This document shows, one piece after another, positions 9,357 to 57,601 of a stretch of DNA of 64,000 nucleotides. This DNA is from Patescibacteria group bacterium (lineage in GTDB: Bacteria; Patescibacteriota; Minisyncoccia; Phycocordibacterales; PALSA-1337), in the NCBI GenBank assembly GCA_018971685.1, contig JAGXAG010000001.1, positions 19,162 through 83,161 of the forward strand. Reading direction: 5' to 3'. A program made the position numbers and the translations under genes. Numbering within the stretch: the stretch's first letter is position 1; each line of letters begins with the position of its first letter. The notes beneath the pieces were generated by a model. That model was given only the letters and a program-made list of their open reading frames with translations, was not told where the DNA came from and did not search any database.

Positions 9357-11912
9357 TCACTTCAGCTCGCCCCAATTATCACCGACGCTCTCATGTGCCG
9401 CCAATATTATCCCTTTCGTATTCTTCGGATCAACAACCGACTCCATGATCCGTTTTATTTCCTTGGCAACCGTTTCAACTTTATCTTCTCTGATTTCGTA
9501 GATCAATTCATCGTGCACTTGCAATAACGGAAAAACTCCGCCGCCTGGATTTTCACACTCCAAATATTCATCGATCTTGACCATGGCCAGCTTGATAATA
9601 TCGGCTTCGGTACCTTGGATCGGCGCGTTGATTGCCATGCGTTCGGCCTGCGCTTTGATATAGGGGATTTTCGAATTTATGCCCTCGAAGTATCTGCGCC
9701 GCCCGAACAAGGTCTCCGTGTAACCGCGGCGCGCCGTTTCTTCCTTGATCTTGTCCAAATAAGAAGCCAGCGTGGCAAATTCCGCAAAGTAATCATTCAA
9801 GAACTTTTGCGCATCTTCCCTGCTCGCGCCCAGATTTTGCTTCAAGGCCAAGACGCCCATGCCGTATATGATGCCGAAATTGATCACTTTCGCCCGGCGT
9901 CTCATTTCCGGCGTAACATTTTCCGGCTTTACCTTGAATGTGAAGGCGGCCACGGCGGTATGGACATCTTCGCCTTTTCTGAAAATATCGATCAGTTTTT
10001 TATCACCCGACAGAAACGCTGCGATGCGTAACTCCATCTGTGAATAGTCGAAAGCCGCCAACTTGAACCCCCTCTCGGCGACAAACGCATATCTGATCGC
10101 CTTGCCGAGTTCCGATTTGACCGGAATGTTTTGCAGATTGGGATTTTCCGACGCCATGCGGCCGGTCGCCGCGCCGCTCTGGATGAAATGCGTGTGCAAT
10201 CTGTCGTTTCCATCCAGCAGCGGCGGTATGGCGTCGATATATGTAGACAACAATTTCGACAACTCACGGTAATCAAATATCATCGGCACCACCGGGTGCA
10301 TATCACGCATCTTTTCCAGCTCCGATTCGCGTGTCGACCGCGCGCCGCCGGCCGTTTTCTTGCCGTTTTTTATCTTCAGCCCCAGCTTGTCGAACAAAAA
10401 TTCGCCCAGCTGCTTCGGCGAGTTTATGTTGAATTCCCCGCCCGCCGCGTCCCAAATCTTCTTTTCGATCATTTCCAACTCGGCGTGGTATTTCTCCGAC
10501 AGTTTTTTCAGCGCGTTTTTGTCGACTTTTATGCCGCGCTGTTCCATCTTGCGCAATACCGGCGCAAGCGGCCGTTCGATCTCATTGTATATTTTACGCT
10601 GGCCGCTTTTATCCAATTCATCGAATATCACTTTTTTGGCTTCATTTAAGTTTTTCACGCCCGTAAAATTCATAATATCTTCCAACTTTGGGTTTGTCAT
10701 ATTGGAATTCACCAGCCATAAGGCGAGCGCCGCCTGTTCGAATTCGCCTTCGTTCGCCGACGCCTTCCGCAAATGAGACCCCTCGAGTTCCGCGACTCTG
10801 CCGCGAAGCAATCCGTCGCCGCGTTTCCCAACCGACAAGTCCGTGCATGTCCGAGAGGACTTGTCGGTTGTGGAAACGCCGACGGTTGCGAGCGGCATTC
10901 GCGAAACTCGAGGGGTCTCATTTGCGGAAGGCGCGGCGCCGGCGAAAGTTGATGAAATGCCAACAGCCTTTTCAAGCCTCTGCGGCAATGTCCGGAACTC
11001 CAATTCGCGCCACAGTGTATTGATTTTCTCCAAATCAAGTCCTTCCTTGAAAGATTTGTCCGGCAGCGAAAATTTGATGGGTGCGTCACGGCGAATCGTC
11101 GCCAGCATTTTACTGAATTCGGCGTCTTCTTTGCTCTCTTTCAATATCTTTAAAAGCCGCGGCGTCAGTCCGGCCTTCTTAAACTTTTCATCATGTCCGG
11201 ATTCCAATTCTCGGTAAATATCATCAATCCCGCCAAAAACGGTTATAAGAGCTGTGGCTGTTTTCTCGCCTATGCCCGCCACGCCAGGAATATTGTCCGA
11301 CGGATCGCCCCGCAGGCCTTTGTAGTCCGGAATCAATTCCGGACCAAAACCGAAACGCTTTCTCACCGCGTTCTCGTCGTACATGATCGTGTCGTTTATG
11401 CCTTTTTTGAGGGTATAAACCTTAACATCTTCGCCGTGAATTAATTGCATGGTATCCATGTCGCCGGAGGCAATAACGATCTCAACTCCATTGTTAGTCT
11501 CCTCCGCCGTCTCGACGAGAGAGGTGGTGGCCAACTGATGAACAATAGTCCCGATAATGTCATCGGCTTCAAAACCCTGCGCATCATATATGGGAATACC
11601 GAGTGCCGCAAAGATATCACGAGAACGAATGATTTGCGCGATGAGATCATCCTCTGTTTTTTTGCGGCCGGCTTTGTATTCTTTGTAAACTTCATGGCGA
11701 TATGTTGGACCTTTGACATCGTAACAGGCGATCATGTAATCCGGCTTCAAATCCTCGATGATTTTTATGAGCATGGTCGAAAGCCCGTAAATCGCGCCCG
11801 TCGGTTCACCCTTTTTAGTCGCGAAATCCGGCAAGGCGTGATAAGCGCGGTGGAGGATCGCGTGGGCGTCGAGCAATACCAAGCGTTTTTTGCCTTGAAT
11901 GGTTTGCGGCAT
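9357..11912 (-). CDS. polA: DNA polymerase I (5'-3' exonuclease plus polymerase domain; no 3'-5' exonuclease domain; palindromic in-frame insert at the domain junction)
   Basis: N-terminal FEN/5'-nuclease motifs (LVLLDAHAILHRAYHAL, EADDIIGT). C-terminal family-A pol motifs (RRRAKVINFGIIYGM, QVHDELIYE). 851 aa. Confidence 0.9.
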   Translation of the reverse strand: MPQTIQGKKRLVLLDAHAILHRAYHALPDFATKKGEPTGAIYGLSTMLIKIIEDLKPDYMIACYDVKGPTYRHEVYKEYKAGRKKTEDDLIAQIIRSRDIFAALGIPIYDAQGFEADDIIGTIVHQLATTSLVETAEETNNGVEIVIASGDMDTMQLIHGEDVKVYTLKKGINDTIMYDENAVRKRFGFGPELIPDYKGLRGDPSDNIPGVAGIGEKTATALITVFGGIDDIYRELESGHDEKFKKAGLTPRLLKILKESKEDAEFSKMLATIRRDAPIKFSLPDKSFKEGLDLEKINTLWRELEFRTLPQRLEKAVGISSTFAGAAPSANETPRVSRMPLATVGVSTTDKSSRTCTDLSVGKRGDGLLRGRVAELEGSHLRKASANEGEFEQAALALWLVNSNMTNPKLEDIMNFTGVKNLNEAKKVIFDELDKSGQRKIYNEIERPLAPVLRKMEQRGIKVDKNALKKLSEKYHAELEMIEKKIWDAAGGEFNINSPKQLGEFLFDKLGLKIKNGKKTAGGARSTRESELEKMRDMHPVVPMIFDYRELSKLLSTYIDAIPPLLDGNDRLHTHFIQSGAATGRMASENPNLQNIPVKSELGKAIRYAFVAERGFKLAAFDYSQMELRIAAFLSGDKKLIDIFRKGEDVHTAVAAFTFKVKPENVTPEMRRRAKVINFGIIYGMGVLALKQNLGASREDAQKFLNDYFAEFATLASYLDKIKEETARRGYTETLFGRRRYFEGINSKIPYIKAQAERMAINAPIQGTEADIIKLAMVKIDEYLECENPGGGVFPLLQVHDELIYEIREDKVETVAKEIKRIMESVVDPKNTKGIILAAHESVGDNWGELK
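10763..10931. repeat. 169-bp imperfect palindrome inside polA (27-bp perfect outer arms 10763-10789 / 10905-10931; 14-bp inner arms 10829-10842 / 10857-10870), kept in frame
   Basis: The outer arms (CCTTCCGCAAATGAGACCCCTCGAGTT and its reverse complement) were read directly. The six-frame track shows open frames on both strands across it. Confidence 0.7.
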
Positions 11913-13708: not shown

Positions 13709-13803
13709 AGTAATCCCCAGAAAAAGTTGCTTTTTAATGGGAGCGGCGGTAGTGTTGCGACAGAGATGCTCGAGAGCAAGAAAAGAGACGAAAAACGAGC
13801 CGG

Positions 13804-13951
13804 CGAATCTCTAAGCAATATCTCCCGGCGTGATGCCGGAAGTGAGGCAAGGCTTCGAGGATAGATCCAGTCATTTCTTCGTAAAAAAAGAAAACCAGAT
13901 CGTCCTTAACGCCGTGCCCGAACCTGAGTCAGGTCATTGCTTAGAGATTCG
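13804..13951. repeat. 16-bp perfect inverted repeat (CGAATCTCTAAGCAAT / ATTGCTTAGAGATTCG) enclosing about 115 bp with internal hairpins; candidate structured RNA or MITE
   Basis: Read directly from the 330-bp pilB-ruvB intergenic region. Confidence 0.4.
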
Positions 13952-14005
13952 CAAGCTCGTAAATTTATCACAATTTCTCTAACATGCTAGCATATCTATA
14001 TTAAA

Positions 14006-15529: not shown

Positions 15530-15645
15530 CCATCCGCACAATGCGCCACCCTCCCTTCACTGGCTTCGCAAGACGGAGACGATGATCGAGATAACAAAAA
15601 CTCAACTTGAAGCCAGTGAATGGCGGCGGCGCCTTGTGCGGATGG
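15530..15645. repeat. long imperfect palindrome (about 37-bp arms) downstream of ruvC, followed by a consensus DnaA box
   Basis: CCATCCGCACAATGCGCC...TTCACTGGCTTC pairs with GAAGCCAGTGAA...GGCGCCTTGTGCGGATGG. Confidence 0.45.
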
Positions 15646-37943: not shown

Positions 37944-40025
37944 CTAAAAATCAATAAAAATCGCCTTGGCACCCGTCGGTTTCTCCGGGACATGTTCCTC
38001 GAGCGACTCTTTCGCGATATCATCAATAAACTCCGACGGCGCACTAACCCTCTGCGCCCCATAAATATTCCGCACGATCGCGTAGCTCAAAAACACCTTT
38101 TTCTTCGCTCTCGTCAGCGCTACATAGAAAAGCCGCCGCTCCTCTTCCTCATCCGCCCGGCTCACTTCCTTTTCGTCCGCGCGTTTGAACGGGAATAAAT
38201 CCTGTTCCAGCCCGGCGACGAAGACCGCGTCAAATTCAAGGCCTTTCGACGCATGCACTGTCATCAGCTTCACCGCATCTTCGTTTTTTTCTAGTTCGTC
38301 CTGATCCGTCGCCAGCGCCGCGTTTTCCAGGAATTTTTCTATGCCGCTTGCGCCGTCTTGCGCCGTTTGCACAGTCCCCGCATGCGCAAACGCTCCCGCG
38401 GCAGGCAGATCATCGTATTGCGTCGCCACCGAAACCAATTCTTGAATGTTCCTCAGCCGTTCCTCGTCATCAATGTCCCCTTTTTGGAATACCCGCGACA
38501 TTCCGGTTTCTTCGATGATAAATTTCACCGCCTCTGACGGCTTCTTTTCCATGATCTCTTTCTTGATATCGCCGAGCAGTTTCCAGAAGCCGGCGACTTT
38601 TTCTTTCATTGCCGGCGGCAGATCCGTCACGCCGGACGCCAGTTTTATGACCGTCGCTTTGCCTATGCCGCGCGGCGGCACATTGATGATTCTCGCTATG
38701 TCGCCCCAACTTTCGCTCGGTTCACCGGCGGGTTCGCTGAGGTCCGACTTCAGTATACTGATGTCCGACCTCAGCGAACCGTCGTGATTCAGCGCCGCGC
38801 GGACATAAGAAAGCACATCTTTTACCTCTTTCCGTTCGAAGAAGCGGGTGCCGATCAATTGGTATGGTATGTTTTTCTTTATAAACGCTTCTTCCAACGC
38901 CCTCGATTGAAAATTCGCCCGATACAGCACCGCGATTTCCCCGGGTGAAATGCCCGAAGCAATCAGCCTCTTGGCGGTGTCGGCGATCGCGCGCGCCTCG
39001 TCATTTTCGGTGTATGAAACCAGTAGTGAAATTTTTTCGCCCTCGATATTGTCCGTATAGAGCGTCTTGTCTTTGCGCAGAATGTTCTTCTTGATGATGT
39101 CATTCGCCGCCGACAGAATGATCTTCGTTGAGCGATAATTTTTCTCCAGCGTAATGACCGTCGCATCCGGATAATCTTTCTCGAAATTCAATATGTTTTC
39201 GATCGTCGCGCCGCGCCAGCCGTAAATATTCTGGTCCGCGTCGCCGACCGCGCAGATATTCGGCCGCGCCGCGCCGGCCAAGACTTGCCCGTCAGTCAGA
39301 TATTTGGCGATCTTGTATTGTACCCTATTCGTGTCTTGATATTCGTCTATATGCAGATATTGCCAAAGGCCGCCGTAATATTTGCGCATACCCTCGCGTT
39401 TTTCCAAGAATTGAGCCGTCTTCAGAAGCAAATCGTCGAAATCAAGCGCTTTTTCTTTGGCCAGAATCAATTCGTATTTTTCCCAGACGCCGGCCGCCAT
39501 TTCCTCGATGAAATCTTTGGCCGCGCCGAAATATTCGAGCCGGCCGATCCCGTCGCCTTTGGCCAGCGATATCTTGTTCAAGATAAATCCCGGATCGAAT
39601 TTTTTCGGATCGATCGACGACTGTTCCATCGCCTCTTTTATCGCCCTCTTCGAATCCGCCCGGTCGTATATCGTAAAATGCCTCGTCAAACCGAACTCTC
39701 TGGCATGCGCGCGTATGATCTGCACACCCAAGGAATGAAAAGTCGAGACGAACGGCCTTTCGCCGCGCGAATTTGACATCGAGACAGGCAAATTCAAGTC
39801 TTTGTCATTTGCGATCAGGCTCGCCACGCGGTCCCGCATCTCTCTTGCCGCCTTATTGGTGAAAGTTATTGCCAGGATGTTGTGCGGCGCCACTCCATTC
39901 CTGATCAAGTTCAATATTCGGTGCGTTATTACCCGCGTCTTGCCCGAACCCGCCCCGGCAATTATCAGCACCGGCCCATCAATCGTGTTCACCGCCTTTA
40001 ATTGTTCCGGATTTAACCCATCCAT
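37944..40025 (-). CDS. uvrD: ATP-dependent DNA helicase UvrD/PcrA family
   Basis: LNPEQLKAVNTIDGPVLIIAGAGSGKTRVITHRI, i.e. helicase motif I. SF1 motifs throughout. Confidence 0.9.
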   Translation of the reverse strand: MDGLNPEQLKAVNTIDGPVLIIAGAGSGKTRVITHRILNLIRNGVAPHNILAITFTNKAAREMRDRVASLIANDKDLNLPVSMSNSRGERPFVSTFHSLGVQIIRAHAREFGLTRHFTIYDRADSKRAIKEAMEQSSIDPKKFDPGFILNKISLAKGDGIGRLEYFGAAKDFIEEMAAGVWEKYELILAKEKALDFDDLLLKTAQFLEKREGMRKYYGGLWQYLHIDEYQDTNRVQYKIAKYLTDGQVLAGAARPNICAVGDADQNIYGWRGATIENILNFEKDYPDATVITLEKNYRSTKIILSAANDIIKKNILRKDKTLYTDNIEGEKISLLVSYTENDEARAIADTAKRLIASGISPGEIAVLYRANFQSRALEEAFIKKNIPYQLIGTRFFERKEVKDVLSYVRAALNHDGSLRSDISILKSDLSEPAGEPSESWGDIARIINVPPRGIGKATVIKLASGVTDLPPAMKEKVAGFWKLLGDIKKEIMEKKPSEAVKFIIEETGMSRVFQKGDIDDEERLRNIQELVSVATQYDDLPAAGAFAHAGTVQTAQDGASGIEKFLENAALATDQDELEKNEDAVKLMTVHASKGLEFDAVFVAGLEQDLFPFKRADEKEVSRADEEEERRLFYVALTRAKKKVFLSYAIVRNIYGAQRVSAPSEFIDDIAKESLEEHVPEKPTGAKAIFIDF

Positions 40026-40289
40026 GTTGTTGAAAATAACACAAAGCCCGTTGCTAATCTATCCTAATCTCCTTTCACCGACCATTCCGCATAAATTATT
40101 GACATCTTGGCAACAAACATGACTGTGTACAAACTCGATTGACAATTCTCTCTCACCTGCTATTCTGCACAAAGCACCCTAATGACAAATCATCATTGAG
40201 TGGCTCAACCGAGCCATTTGTTCATTAAGGAGCCACCTCCTGAAAGGATGGACGAAAGTAACGGCTGAACTCGGAAAGAAACACAATTT

Positions 40290-53462: not shown

Positions 53463-53821
53463 TATTGAAGCTCTACAGAGCCGTATTAAGTTAAATCTTC
53501 ACATAAATTTTTTTATGCGTACCCAGGTCGGACCTCAAAGATAAAACCGCGTCAATAGCGGTCTCGAGAATAATTGAGTACGCCTGACGCGGTCTCGAAG
53601 CTCGATAAAAGAACTTATCCAAGTCATTCCTTGGTAAGTGACATGCATCTTTCCTCGAATCAATGCTCTCCTGTTGGGAGGCTTATTTTTGTTGAGAAAG
53701 CATATGTCACCTTTTGTCACCAAGCAATAAGAGGACGAAAACAAACATTCGAGCTTCATGAAAAGGAGTGCGGTACTACCCTTACCGCAGAGTTTTTGAA
53801 AAGATCAATGCTCGTTTTCTC

Positions 53822-53990
53822 TGTGCTCGTCAAAATATTCACCATGCTCTATTAGCGCCGCGCCTCTCTCCTTGCAACGACGAAATATTTCCCTCCATGC
53901 CAGCTTTCGCTTGCGTCGGGAAACACCTATCGCCGGCTCGACAGTCGAGACTATGCATACCACGGTTTAATAAATATTTTGACGAGCACA
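53822..53990. ncRNA. candidate structured RNA or MITE: 18-bp perfect inverted repeat (TGTGCTCGTCAAAATATT / AATATTTTGACGAGCACA) closing about 130 nt with internal hairpins, inside a 600-bp convergent non-coding gap
   Basis: Read directly. No convincing ORF in 53463-54069. Strand unknown. Confidence 0.3.
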
Positions 53991-54069
53991 GCAGACCTCG
54001 GACAACGAACGGATCTGTCTTTATTCTATGTCCTTTACAGACTCGCGTAAAGGACATAGCTGTGGATAA

Positions 54070-55608: not shown

Positions 55609-55683
55609 GCCCTCGTGGTGAAACGGATATCACAGCGGTCTTCGGAACCGTTATTGCAGGTTCGATTCCTGCCGAGGGCACCA
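55609..55683 (+). tRNA. tRNA-Arg (anticodon UCG), CCA encoded
   Basis: Manual fold: GCCCTCG/CGAGGGC acceptor, GTGA/TCAC D-stem, GCGGT-CTTCGGA-ACCGT anticodon arm, GCAGG-TTCGATT-CCTGC T-arm, then ACCA. Confidence 0.65.
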
Positions 55684-55766
55684 TATAGGAAGTTGCAGTA
55701 ATTTTGCGAAAATATGATTATCGGGTATACTTGATTGTGAGAGTTGTGGTTTGTTATTGTCCGTAT

Positions 55767-55837
55767 GCGGGTATCGTTTAGTGGTAGGACGCGTCCTTGC
55801 CAAGGACGAGGTTGGAGTTCGATTCTCCATACCCGCA
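55767..55837 (+). tRNA. tRNA-Gly (anticodon GCC)
   Basis: GCGGGTA/TACCCGC acceptor, CGTCC-TTGCCAA-GGACG anticodon arm, TGGAG-TTCGATT-CTCCA T-arm. Confidence 0.7.
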
Positions 55838-56051
55838 CAAGTAAAATTTGTTGTCTTTATGTGAATATGGTCTGTATAAAATGGCTTAGGACCGTTATTT
55901 TCGGCATTGAAACTGTGGATAAGTCTGTTAACAGTGTTGATAAAAGTCACAAAAAATGGCTTTAATATGTTGACTTTGTTCTTTATTAGCCGGTCCATAA
56001 AAATTTAATGGCTTAACCGTAGAATTTATCAAGGAAATAATTTTAAAAGTC

Positions 56052-56444
56052 ATGGAAATTGTGTTGCACAAACGAGCAAAAGGGAATAAAGGTGAAGATA
56101 TTGCATGTAAATTTTTGGAACGGCATAATTTCAATGTTATTGACCGTAATTATCAGAAAAAGTGTGGAGAACTCGACATAATAGCCAAAAAGGACAAGGT
56201 TGTTCATTTCTTCGAAGTCAAAAGTGTAACCGGCGATTTTTCTGAAAAATTTTTAGACGCCCATCGTCCCGAGGATAATGTTGATCAATGGAAAATAAGG
56301 CATTTAAGGCGCATTATAGAGACTTATATTGCTGACAAGAAATTAGGTCCCGAAGCAGAATTTCATTTTCATGTTCTGTGTGTTTACATGAACTTGGATA
56401 ATAGGCGTGCCGTGGTCAAGTGGCTAAAAGACATTATTTTATGA
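56052..56444 (+). CDS. yraN: YraN/UPF0102 family PD-(D/E)xK endonuclease
   Basis: KGEDIACKFLERHNFNVIDRNYQKKCGELDIIAKKD...FFEVK motif order. Confidence 0.7.
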   Translation: MEIVLHKRAKGNKGEDIACKFLERHNFNVIDRNYQKKCGELDIIAKKDKVVHFFEVKSVTGDFSEKFLDAHRPEDNVDQWKIRHLRRIIETYIADKKLGPEAEFHFHVLCVYMNLDNRRAVVKWLKDIIL

Positions 56445-56508
56445 TAAAGTATAGTCATATACCTCGTCGTAACCTTTAACGAAATGAGAGGTTACGGCGA
56501 GGTAATAC

Positions 56509-56581
56509 CGGAGCGTGGTGTAACGGCTAACATACCTGTTTTGGGTACAGGTGACTCCGGGTTCGAATCCCGGCGCTCCGA
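56509..56581 (+). tRNA. tRNA-Pro (anticodon UGG)
   Basis: CGGAGCG/CGCTCCG acceptor, CCTGT-TTTGGGT-ACAGG anticodon arm, CCGGG-TTCGAAT-CCCGG T-arm. Confidence 0.7.
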
Positions 56582-56634
56582 CATGTGGATACAAATATGC
56601 GAATTTTACTAATGATACGAATATTACAAATAAT

Positions 56635-57084
56635 ATGAAGAAGATCGTACACTTTTTCGACAAGTTGGAAGATAGGATACGCGAGCATTTGAGCCACTAT
56701 CCTATTCTTTATACGATCATAGGGGGCGTAGCCATCGTGCTTTTCTGGAGAGGAGTATGGCATACGGCTGATATGTTGGAAGGACAAGGCGGCTGGCTCG
56801 GTTTTATATTCTATGAGCCAATAAATCTGTTGATCGTTGTCATCATACTGCTTATGACTGGTCTTTTCGTGTCATACTTTATCGGGGATACTATACTCAT
56901 GAGTGGTTTGAAACATCAGAAAAAATCCACTGAGAAAACGGAAAGAGAAGTACAGGAAGAAGAGTCAGAATTAAAAAATATAAGATCTACCATAAAAGAG
57001 ATGAAAAAGGAGGTTGATGAGATAAAGGACGCAGTTAACACCGGTCGGACCCGTGCCACCGGTCAGACCGGTGTAAGATCATGA
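56635..57084 (+). CDS. hypothetical membrane protein with C-terminal coiled coil; last about 14 codons encoded by a palindromic repeat
   Basis: Start at MKKIVHFFDK; the track ORF begins at 56551 over the tRNA-Pro 3' end, which is implausible. Two TM helices. Confidence 0.45.
   Translation: MKKIVHFFDKLEDRIREHLSHYPILYTIIGGVAIVLFWRGVWHTADMLEGQGGWLGFIFYEPINLLIVVIILLMTGLFVSYFIGDTILMSGLKHQKKSTEKTEREVQEEESELKNIRSTIKEMKKEVDEIKDAVNTGRTRATGQTGVRS
57038..57074. repeat. composite GC-rich palindromic element (ACACCGGTCGGACCCGTGCCACCGGTCAGACCGGTGT)
   Basis: Overlaps the 3' end of the upstream CDS. Identical copy at 57453-57489. Confidence 0.6.
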
Positions 57085-57449
57085 TTTCATACGAAGATTT
57101 CAAAAAAGTCGAGATAAAAGCGGGCAAGATATTGTCTGCGGAGAAAGTTCCCGATACCGATAAGCTATTGAGGCTATCAGTTGATTTTGCCGAGAATAGG
57201 GAAGTGACCGGTGAAGATGGTGTTGTCGTGGCAAAACCGCATGTCCGTCAGATAATTTCGGGCATATCTGCGTATTTTCCAGATCCGCAGTTGCTTGTAG
57301 GTAAAACATGCATGTTCGTGACCAATCTGGAGCCGAGAGTTATTCGCGGTTTAGAGAGTCAAGGCATGATATTGGCGGCGAAGACTGATACAGGCTTTTC
57401 TCTACTGGAGCCTAATGATTCTATTCATCCCGGTGCCACCGCTTCATAA
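57081..57449 (+). CDS. tRNA-binding domain protein (CsaA/YgjH, EMAP-like OB fold)
   Basis: FKKVEIKAGKILSAEKVPDTDKLLRLSVDF...GISAYFP matches the Trbp111/CsaA pattern. Start overlaps the upstream stop (ATGA). Confidence 0.6.
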   Translation: MISYEDFKKVEIKAGKILSAEKVPDTDKLLRLSVDFAENREVTGEDGVVVAKPHVRQIISGISAYFPDPQLLVGKTCMFVTNLEPRVIRGLESQGMILAAKTDTGFSLLEPNDSIHPGATAS

Positions 57450-57452
57450 ATA

Positions 57453-57489
57453 CACCGGTCGGACCCGTGCCACCGGTCAGACCGGTGTA
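57453..57489. repeat. composite GC-rich palindromic element, second copy
   Basis: Identical 37-mer, 4 nt after the CsaA-like stop. Confidence 0.6.
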
Positions 57490-57530
57490 TAATGCGCTTG
57501 TCAACGGAATCTGTTAGTATAGAAATCGCG

Positions 57531-57601
57531 CGGGATTAGTTAAATGGTATAATAACAGTTTTCCAAACTGTGGTCAGGAGTTCGATTCTCCTATCCCGCA
57601 C
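57531..57601 (+). tRNA. tRNA-Gly (anticodon UCC)
   Basis: GCGGGAT/ATCCCGC acceptor, ACAGT-TTTCCAA-ACTGT anticodon arm, AGGAG-TTCGATT-CTCCT T-arm. Confidence 0.65.

Follow-up and report, generated by a model that had tools for sequence, protein, structure and literature searches.

An in-frame palindrome in the interdomain linker of polA, shared by descent across a small Paceibacteria clade

How can a DNA palindrome of 194 nt reside inside the coding sequence of an essential gene, and what keeps its two arms complementary? This question is raised by polA, the gene for DNA polymerase I (Pol I), in a 64,000-nucleotide stretch of DNA from a Patescibacteria group bacterium, a tiny organism of groundwater type (assembly GCA_018971685.1, contig JAGXAG010000001.1, positions 19,162 to 83,161 of the forward strand), which is referred to here as the window. 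An earlier note, made from the letters of this DNA, had described a 169-bp palindromic insertion in the gene and had likened it to the Rickettsia palindromic elements (RPEs). The observation is confirmed by the work described here and the interpretation that came with it is partly supported. Our own reading, which we hold to be probable by a modest degree, is that the palindrome is a clade-specific resident hairpin in a disordered linker of polA, that it had a single origin followed by vertical inheritance, and that its arms are self-corrected by template switching. The palindrome looks like tolerated selfish or self-templated DNA and not like a new function.

The polA gene of the window (9357-11912, minus strand; WIN in the comparisons below) encodes an 851-residue, Taq-like Pol I without a recognizable proofreading domain. 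NCBI entry KGQ27_00175 (Patescibacteria group bacterium) has the same protein sequence. The relatives of this protein are Paceibacteria PolA proteins of 782-943 aa with 58-71% identity, and the best match among solved structures is full-length Taq Pol I (E = 2e-146). The only Pfam domains found are 5_3_exonuc_N, 5_3_exonuc, and DNA_pol_A, which agrees with the initial description of a 5'-nuclease domain and a polymerase domain with no proofreading domain between them. On the minus strand, the 5'-nuclease (FEN-like) domain comprises residues 10-289 (11046-11885; PF02739 and PF01367) and the polymerase domain comprises residues 466-849 (9366-10517; PF00476, E = 1e-134). Between the two are a hypervariable interdomain linker, residues 313-396 (10725-10976), which is delimited by the conserved motifs EFRTLPQR and ALALWL, and residues 397-465 (10518-10724), which an alignment with Taq Pol I identifies as a vestigial 3'-5' exonuclease-like remnant leading into the polymerase domain. 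This remnant aligns to Taq residues ~372-424 and beyond and is conserved in all orthologs. The vestigial exonuclease domain of Taq is ~130 aa in length, and the alignment leaves ~60 non-insert residues of the window's PolA opposite to it, which bears out the proposal that the palindrome lies at the place of the missing exonuclease domain. This domain is missing throughout the group, and its absence is not due to the insertion.

The position of the palindrome in frame inside polA was confirmed by a search for its arms, by its fold, and by the continuous open reading frame. The near-perfect portion spans 10761-10933 (173 nt) with perfect outer arms of 29 nt, instead of the 27 bp originally counted, and an imperfect extension carries it to 10753-10946. 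The full 194 nt form one hairpin of about 80 base pairs, and the alignment of its arms contains 79 matched positions, 5 mismatches, and 12 gap columns. Outer arm A (10761-10795) and its complement, outer arm B (10899-10933), are 35 nt each and 97% complementary, and the longest perfect stretch pairs the first 29 nt of arm A (10761-10789) with 10905-10933. Further inside, a 19-nt inner arm (10824-10842) pairs with 10857-10875 at 89% complementarity, including a perfect run of 14 nt as had been reported, and the 14-nt apical loop (10843-10856) is the center of symmetry. The predicted structure is a single long hairpin (RNA fold -157 kcal/mol, z = -15.6; DNA fold z = -16.4), and none of 200 shuffled sequences reached the fold of the native palindrome. 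The palindrome is also a peak in GC content, at 0.62-0.63 as compared to about 0.36-0.55 in adjoining segments of 150 nt. Four of the six reading frames are stop-free across it, so that both strands are indeed open as first stated; this is a trivial consequence of a GC-rich palindrome. The flanking GCCGGCG and GTCGGCG belong to the extended palindrome, which confounds their reading as a target-site duplication, and a 16-nt imperfect tandem repeat is located at 10736-10767. While the 169-bp segment is palindromic as described, 169 is not a multiple of three and the edges of the palindrome therefore do not delimit the insertion.

The polA reading frame is uninterrupted through the palindrome, which encodes about 58-65 residues and not the ~75 first given. 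Modeling had been suggested as a check on whether the segment forms a loop. AlphaFold2, run on the ortholog alignment, predicts residues 320-386 (10755-10955, minus strand), which coincide with the palindrome and include the tryptic peptide MPLATVGVSTTDK, to be a disordered loop with pLDDT values of 22-26 and no secondary structure, flanked by helices at residues 309-317 and 386-401. According to this model, the palindrome encodes a disordered interdomain spacer of ~60 aa.

Palindromic chimeras are known artifacts of some assemblers and of multiple-displacement amplification, and the structure could in principle be of that kind, such as a fold-back chimera. We regard this explanation as extremely improbable. 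A 24-kb contig of a second assembly, GCA_028870795.1, matches over 3,156 nt with 100% identity, and the palindrome, being identical in two assemblies, is therefore not an assembly artifact. In addition, it is found within long contigs (157,623 bp for the longest on record with this PolA protein) with the frame preserved, one of the proteins (P0004; P numbers denote proteins and L numbers denote ortholog loci) is present on nine contigs, and homologous palindromes occupy the same site in independent ENA, JGI, and GTDB studies.

To place the palindrome in context, polA DNA was sampled from 4 close relatives, 80 GTDB species, and 80 metagenome contigs, plus the locus L166. In a neighbor-joining tree of PolA built without the linker, WIN, L003, L087, L002, L001, and L085 form one clade, and all of them have the hairpin, with z values from -3 to -13. 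When L166 (P0006) is included, seven of seven sampled clade members keep a hairpin at the same site. L166 is the shortest close relative; its 19-bp GC-rich stem around the CTCCGAAGAGGGTTC motif (z = -5) looks like a derivative of the element with the interior deleted. The sister clade (L088/L091/L092) has linkers of 33-48 aa and no hairpin, and the net gain relative to these linkers is roughly 36-51 codons. The alignment of WIN with L003 at the left boundary is significant (z = 5.3; none of 300 shuffles scored as well), and the GC-rich base of the stem adjoins the conserved helix in every clade member. The shape of the hairpin differs within the clade, in that L001, L002, and L003 have a long outer stem with two inner hairpins and WIN has one continuous hairpin. 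Taken together, these comparisons demonstrate that the members of a monophyletic clade share the element at one site by descent. Gene order around polA (T2SSE ATPase, polA, tsaE, holA-like) is kept across the group, and in L166 (1-1588 and 10001-12352) polA and dnaA-dnaN are separated by about 10 kb, close to the presumed origin of replication.

Length variation in PolA is concentrated between ELEFRTLxQRLEK and ALALWL in the ortholog alignment, and among 115 non-redundant Paceibacteria orthologs the linker ranges from 26 to 91 aa with a median of 41. Most of these linkers fold no better than shuffled sequence. The earlier note had proposed an alignment of orthologs as a check, and the outcome is in its favor, since orthologs without the palindrome lack the encoded segment and have short, unrelated, and unstructured linkers. 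Strong hairpins (z ≤ -4.5) were found in 12 of the 115 linkers and belong to several unrelated sequence families; the hairpins of different lineages resemble each other in neither sequence nor shape. The 12 hairpin linkers are longer than the others (median 72.5 aa versus 39 aa) and exceed their own genes in GC content by 7%, as compared to 1.6%, with an excess of 18% in L003. A count of long inverted repeats (arms of 18 nt or more, complementarity of 88% or more, total span no greater than 320 nt) gave 0.57 per kb for the linkers, as compared to 0.008 per kb for the remainder of polA and 0.115 per kb for the flanks, where runs of N slightly inflate the figure. The nine matches in linkers correspond to about six independent lineages, and the enrichment is thus real but modest in the number of events. 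Frame 0 is stop-free in 13 of 13 hairpin-bearing linkers examined, the other two sense frames being open in 4 of 13 and 2 of 13, and no polA gene in the GTDB set is interrupted by a palindromic repeat.

PolA of L001 and L002 is 85% identical, and 53% of four-fold sites differ between the two genes. In the outer stem, six of the seven positions that changed between them are compensated on the opposite arm, and three of these are transversion pairs, for which a wobble intermediate is not available; in the first inner hairpin, four of six changes are compensated, as counted by eye from the alignment. The four intact members were then aligned on the invariant CAAA/TTTG core. Pairing is kept in 77 of 80 cells of this alignment (about 95%), and at 15 of 16 variable stem positions there are at least two different Watson-Crick pair types. 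Four-fold sites differ by 65-77% between WIN and the others, which is near saturation. Since synonymous sites are near saturation and nearly all cells remain paired, the arm sequences have turned over almost completely with pairing kept.

The same alignments indicate the level at which this constraint operates. Across 18 linkers, G·U pairs number 88 in the sense-strand fold and 104 in the antisense-strand fold, and ATTTGCGGA, the core that WIN and L003 have in common, falls in a different frame in each of them (CAT TTG CGG in WIN and ATA TTT GCG in L003, read by eye). With no strand bias in G·U pairs and a frame-shifted core, the constraint is therefore on the DNA and is symmetric across strands. 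As far as can be judged from sequence, the signal argues against a constraint on the peptide or the sense mRNA, and an mRNA structure under sense-strand selection was rejected on the basis of the G·U counts.

Pairing kept through saturating divergence is also what favors a different explanation, in which the hairpin is a selected functional structure. It would then be either a DNA hairpin or cruciform that a protein recognizes, or an RNA element that adjusts PolA expression or causes ribosomes to pause where the two domains meet. The placement of the GC-rich stem base next to the conserved helix, retained even in the internally deleted L166, and the nucleotide conservation of the arm ends independent of reading frame (partly read by eye) are consistent with such a function. 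We consider it improbable nonetheless, because about 90% of orthologs have no hairpin at all, the hairpins of separate lineages are unrelated, and the G·U pairs do not favor the sense strand. The hairpin is not followed by a U-tract and is hence not an intrinsic terminator. A search of Rfam returned nothing at the gathering score and, at E ≤ 5, only a chance match to the miRNA family mir-149 (23 bits against a gathering score of 79, E = 1.2). The more specific proposal that the hairpin is a selected cis-acting site for a replication or repair protein, possibly the 5'-nuclease of Pol I itself, or a device that sets PolA output, is one to which we give a slightly lower probability still. If a functional reading were true, the repeated occupation of the linker by unrelated hairpins would represent convergent recruitment and not tolerated junk.

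Our current hypothesis, the resident and self-templated hairpin, would account for these observations as follows. The linker between the 5'-nuclease and polymerase domains would be the only part of polA that is free of protein-level constraint. In the ancestor of the small Paceibacteria clade, a palindrome would have arisen there once, either by insertion of a palindromic repeat or by inverted duplication of linker DNA, and would have been inherited vertically since. The cell would read through the palindrome to produce a floppy spacer of ~60 aa, which would be harmless in a disordered linker with no fixed length. During replication, one arm would serve as a template for the other (quasipalindrome template switching), and a change in one arm would either be erased or be copied as its complement to the other arm. 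We infer template switching as the mechanism of upkeep; translation would proceed through the hairpin, and the hairpin would presumably be of no benefit to the cell. There is precedent for the proposed upkeep, as template switching renders quasipalindromes more perfect in E. coli (PMC7202029), and inverted-repeat arms within yeast coding DNA are homogenized by template switching with clustered multi-nucleotide changes (PMC8604942).

Several other PolA proteins of the group provide insight into where such a palindrome could come from. The linkers of L009 (4059-4201) and L015 (4016-4109) contain inverted doublets of a short, repetitive extragenic palindromic (REP)-like hairpin, GTCATCCCCGCGAAGGCGGGGATCC, that encode VIPAKAGIQ and DSRLRGDD. 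Dispersed copies of GTCATCCCCGCGAAGGCGGGGATCC were found at L007:3390-3488, at L015:3408, 7813, and 8167, at L001:1385-1412, and at L049:2893-2919. The L001 copy is in frame in a loop of the 5'-nuclease domain, where it appears as LDSRFRGND in P0002, and copies in frame in polA coding sequence yield VIPAKAGIQ and (L)DSR(L/F)RG(D/N)D. The linker element of L061 recurs at L061:2432-2482 (94% identity over 51 nt) and that of L079 recurs at L079:5606-5678 (98.6% identity over 73 nt). A further example is P0055 (943 aa), available as a protein sequence, in which the same ~70-aa segment, 'PLFQRGTLQRDSLVK.GEIQENIH.E.HGE.DGKS', is present twice, once in a loop of the 5'-nuclease domain and once in the interdomain linker. 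Palindromic repeats therefore do land in frame in the PolA loops of this group. Because dispersed elements occupy the same site in other lineages and because hairpin linkers are in GC excess, our analysis would favor insertion of a mobile palindromic repeat over in situ inverted duplication as the origin of the clade's palindrome. An origin of the palindrome de novo is possible. The idea that the right arm derives from the original linker and was copied in inverted orientation to give the left arm, which was raised by HLRK in L086 and by an sLF motif, is unsupported, since L086 has no significant DNA similarity and the frame of the core differs between WIN and L001-L003.

These dispersed elements also raise the question of whether the window's palindrome is itself one copy of a multi-copy mobile palindromic repeat, similar to an RPE, a miniature inverted-repeat transposable element (MITE), or a REPIN, that landed in frame in polA by chance. 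Its hairpin would then persist because copies that do not form one fail to propagate, or because this copy is of recent origin. Besides the repeats in L009, L015, L061, and L079, the doubled segment of P0055, and the GC excess of hairpin linkers, this explanation draws on the arm ends of WIN and L003, which are conserved like terminal repeats, and on the presence in the window of another in-frame palindrome, unrelated to the first, within a uvrD/pcrA-like gene. Set against it are the orthology of the element at one site across the clade, the divergence of its interior along with the host, the lack of any clear target-site duplication, and the results of the copy searches that the earlier note had called for. 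No second copy of the element was found within the 64-kb window, where a 23-mer of the arm occurs only at its two places (chance expectation, none), and a search of 1.21 Mb of related loci revealed no copy of either the element or the family core apart from those in polA linkers. In JGI metagenomes, 0 matches were obtained with an exact 21-mer taken from the arm, and blastn against phage and plasmid collections gave no match to the element. A HMMER scan of the peptide in the polA frame against 1.84 billion representative proteins gave a single match, P0121, a 270-aa metagenomic protein of five tandem ~55-aa repeats (E = 5e-7 summed over the five repeats), in which STPRIHRMPNA aligns with ETPRVSRMPLA of the query through the common TPR..RMP.A. 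We judged P0121 to be a tandem-repeat open reading frame that is unrelated to the palindrome peptide, the match probably being a coincidence. A word-index protein search with the three reading frames of the element gave no matches, the source protein being missed as well, and is uninformative. Based on these results, we consider a copy of a multi-copy repeat unlikely, although it is the strongest of the alternatives.

Five points weigh against the resident, self-templated hairpin. First, selection for the hairpin would yield compensatory change equally well, and template switching is itself inferred. Second, the search for copies in the source genome covered 64 kb only, and a low-copy repeat family may exist. 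Third, the closest counterpart of the L003 inner hairpin is found in L004 (z = 8.8), which is outside of the clade. This hints at lateral exchange, or at an older origin followed by losses, and strict vertical descent is therefore not the whole story. Fourth, the outer 25-30 nt of the arms are more conserved between WIN and L003 than saturated synonymous sites predict, which fits either constraint on the arm ends, as in the terminal repeats of transposons, or more recent lateral spread. Lastly, spacer inversion, which template switching is expected to produce at times, is not seen between L001 and L002, the sole close pair, whose loops are collinear.

The element can be compared with several known systems. 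REPINs are extragenic, high-copy, and mobilized by RAYT transposase. The resemblance to REP sequences and REPINs is that of a long hairpin made from two inverted halves, and the L009 and L015 linkers fit this doublet pattern, whereas the window's element is intragenic and apparently single-copy and its arms are not copies of any dispersed short hairpin. In yeast mitochondria, GC clusters can sit in frame in protein genes such as var1, and both GC clusters and double-hairpin elements are multi-copy. By description only, they are similar to the element in being GC-rich palindromes in more AT-rich genomes and in the outer stem with two inner hairpins of L001-L003; they differ in being multi-copy and mitochondrial.

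RPEs are palindromes of ~150 bp that fall into ten families; R. conorii has 44 insertions, many of which are in frame, and the repeat families have dozens of copies per genome (PMC10969869). The window's element is similar in being a palindromic hairpin (173-194 nt, z = -15.6) that is in frame and adds a peptide in a loop predicted to be disordered. It differs in its host, which belongs to Patescibacteria and not Rickettsia, in having no second copy in the approximately 64 kb of genome searched, and in the long-term compensatory co-evolution of its arms at one orthologous site. The likeness to RPEs proposed at the outset thus holds for the tolerance of an in-frame palindrome in a loop and, as far as the searches reach, fails for membership in a multi-copy repeat family. 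Intragenic bacterial MITEs (ERIC, BOX, Correia, and others) are bounded by inverted repeats and sometimes form in-frame fusions (PMC10969869). The element shares terminal inverted repeats with them, which is trivial for a palindrome, and has arm ends conserved between WIN and L003; MITEs are however multi-copy with target-site duplications and a parent insertion sequence, while no copies were found here and a parent element was not searched for. Because the searches made did not reveal multiple copies, the element is not filed as an RPE, MITE, or REPIN. The systems known for template switching show clustered complementary multi-nucleotide changes inside genes, which arise there with no need for selection (PMC7202029, PMC8604942), and the pattern between L001 and L002 is similar. 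They differ from the polA palindrome in that the inverted repeats described are short, from a few up to a few tens of nucleotides, whereas the ~80-nt arms here have persisted in species whose PolA proteins diverge by 23-29%; the lack of spacer inversion between L001 and L002 is a further difference.

Other repeats and structures were observed in the window and in related loci. The in-frame palindrome in the gene for a UvrD/PcrA-like helicase (open reading frame 37947-40058, minus strand) is at 38731-38780 and has 25-nt arms that are 92% complementary with no spacer. It is unrelated in sequence to the polA element and encodes GSLRSDISILKSDLSEP, part of a ~24-aa insertion relative to PcrA between YLRxxxNPxDD and RIINVPxRGIG. 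A conserved intergenic element of ~166 nt (13795-13960) adjoins the gene for a PilB/T2SSE-like ATPase and has 25-nt closing arms with AATCTCTAAGC. Relatives of this element are at L073:106-266, L084:177-339, L080:230-392, and L068:636-786, and the five distant genomes align. RNAalifold predicts 56 pairs, 31 of which have covariation on both sides, with invariant internal GGAC, GGT, and ATCCT. The element had no Rfam match even at E ≤ 5 and, from its sequence, is a candidate for an unannotated structured RNA. Long intergenic inverted repeats of unique sequence are present at 15530-15645 (116 nt, DNA-fold z = -6.2) and 53821-53991 (171 nt, z = -3.3), and similar unique hairpins of 110-180 nt are found just downstream of polA in L002, L018, and L079. 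A small cluster of tRNA genes is located at 55609-57600, and an inverted repeat of 46 nt (57030-57075 and 57451-57496; 83% complementary, 375 nt apart) adjoins the tRNA gene at 57530-57600.

Palindromes that encode protein in frame have been regarded as peculiar to Rickettsia, and the same behavior is seen here in the Candidate Phyla Radiation. Two aspects are different, namely that one permissive linker of an essential gene has been repeatedly occupied by unrelated palindromic elements, and that a near-perfect hairpin has been retained across a clade in which synonymous sites are nearly saturated. The polA linker thus offers a natural system in which the survival and co-evolution of long palindromes in small genomes can be studied, including whether template switching or selection is responsible. 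It also points to palindromes as a route to the creation of disordered protein segments. For annotators, such segments should not be taken for degenerate domains, as differences in the length of PolA, and probably of other proteins that these genomes encode, can mirror repeat DNA and not the gain of a domain.

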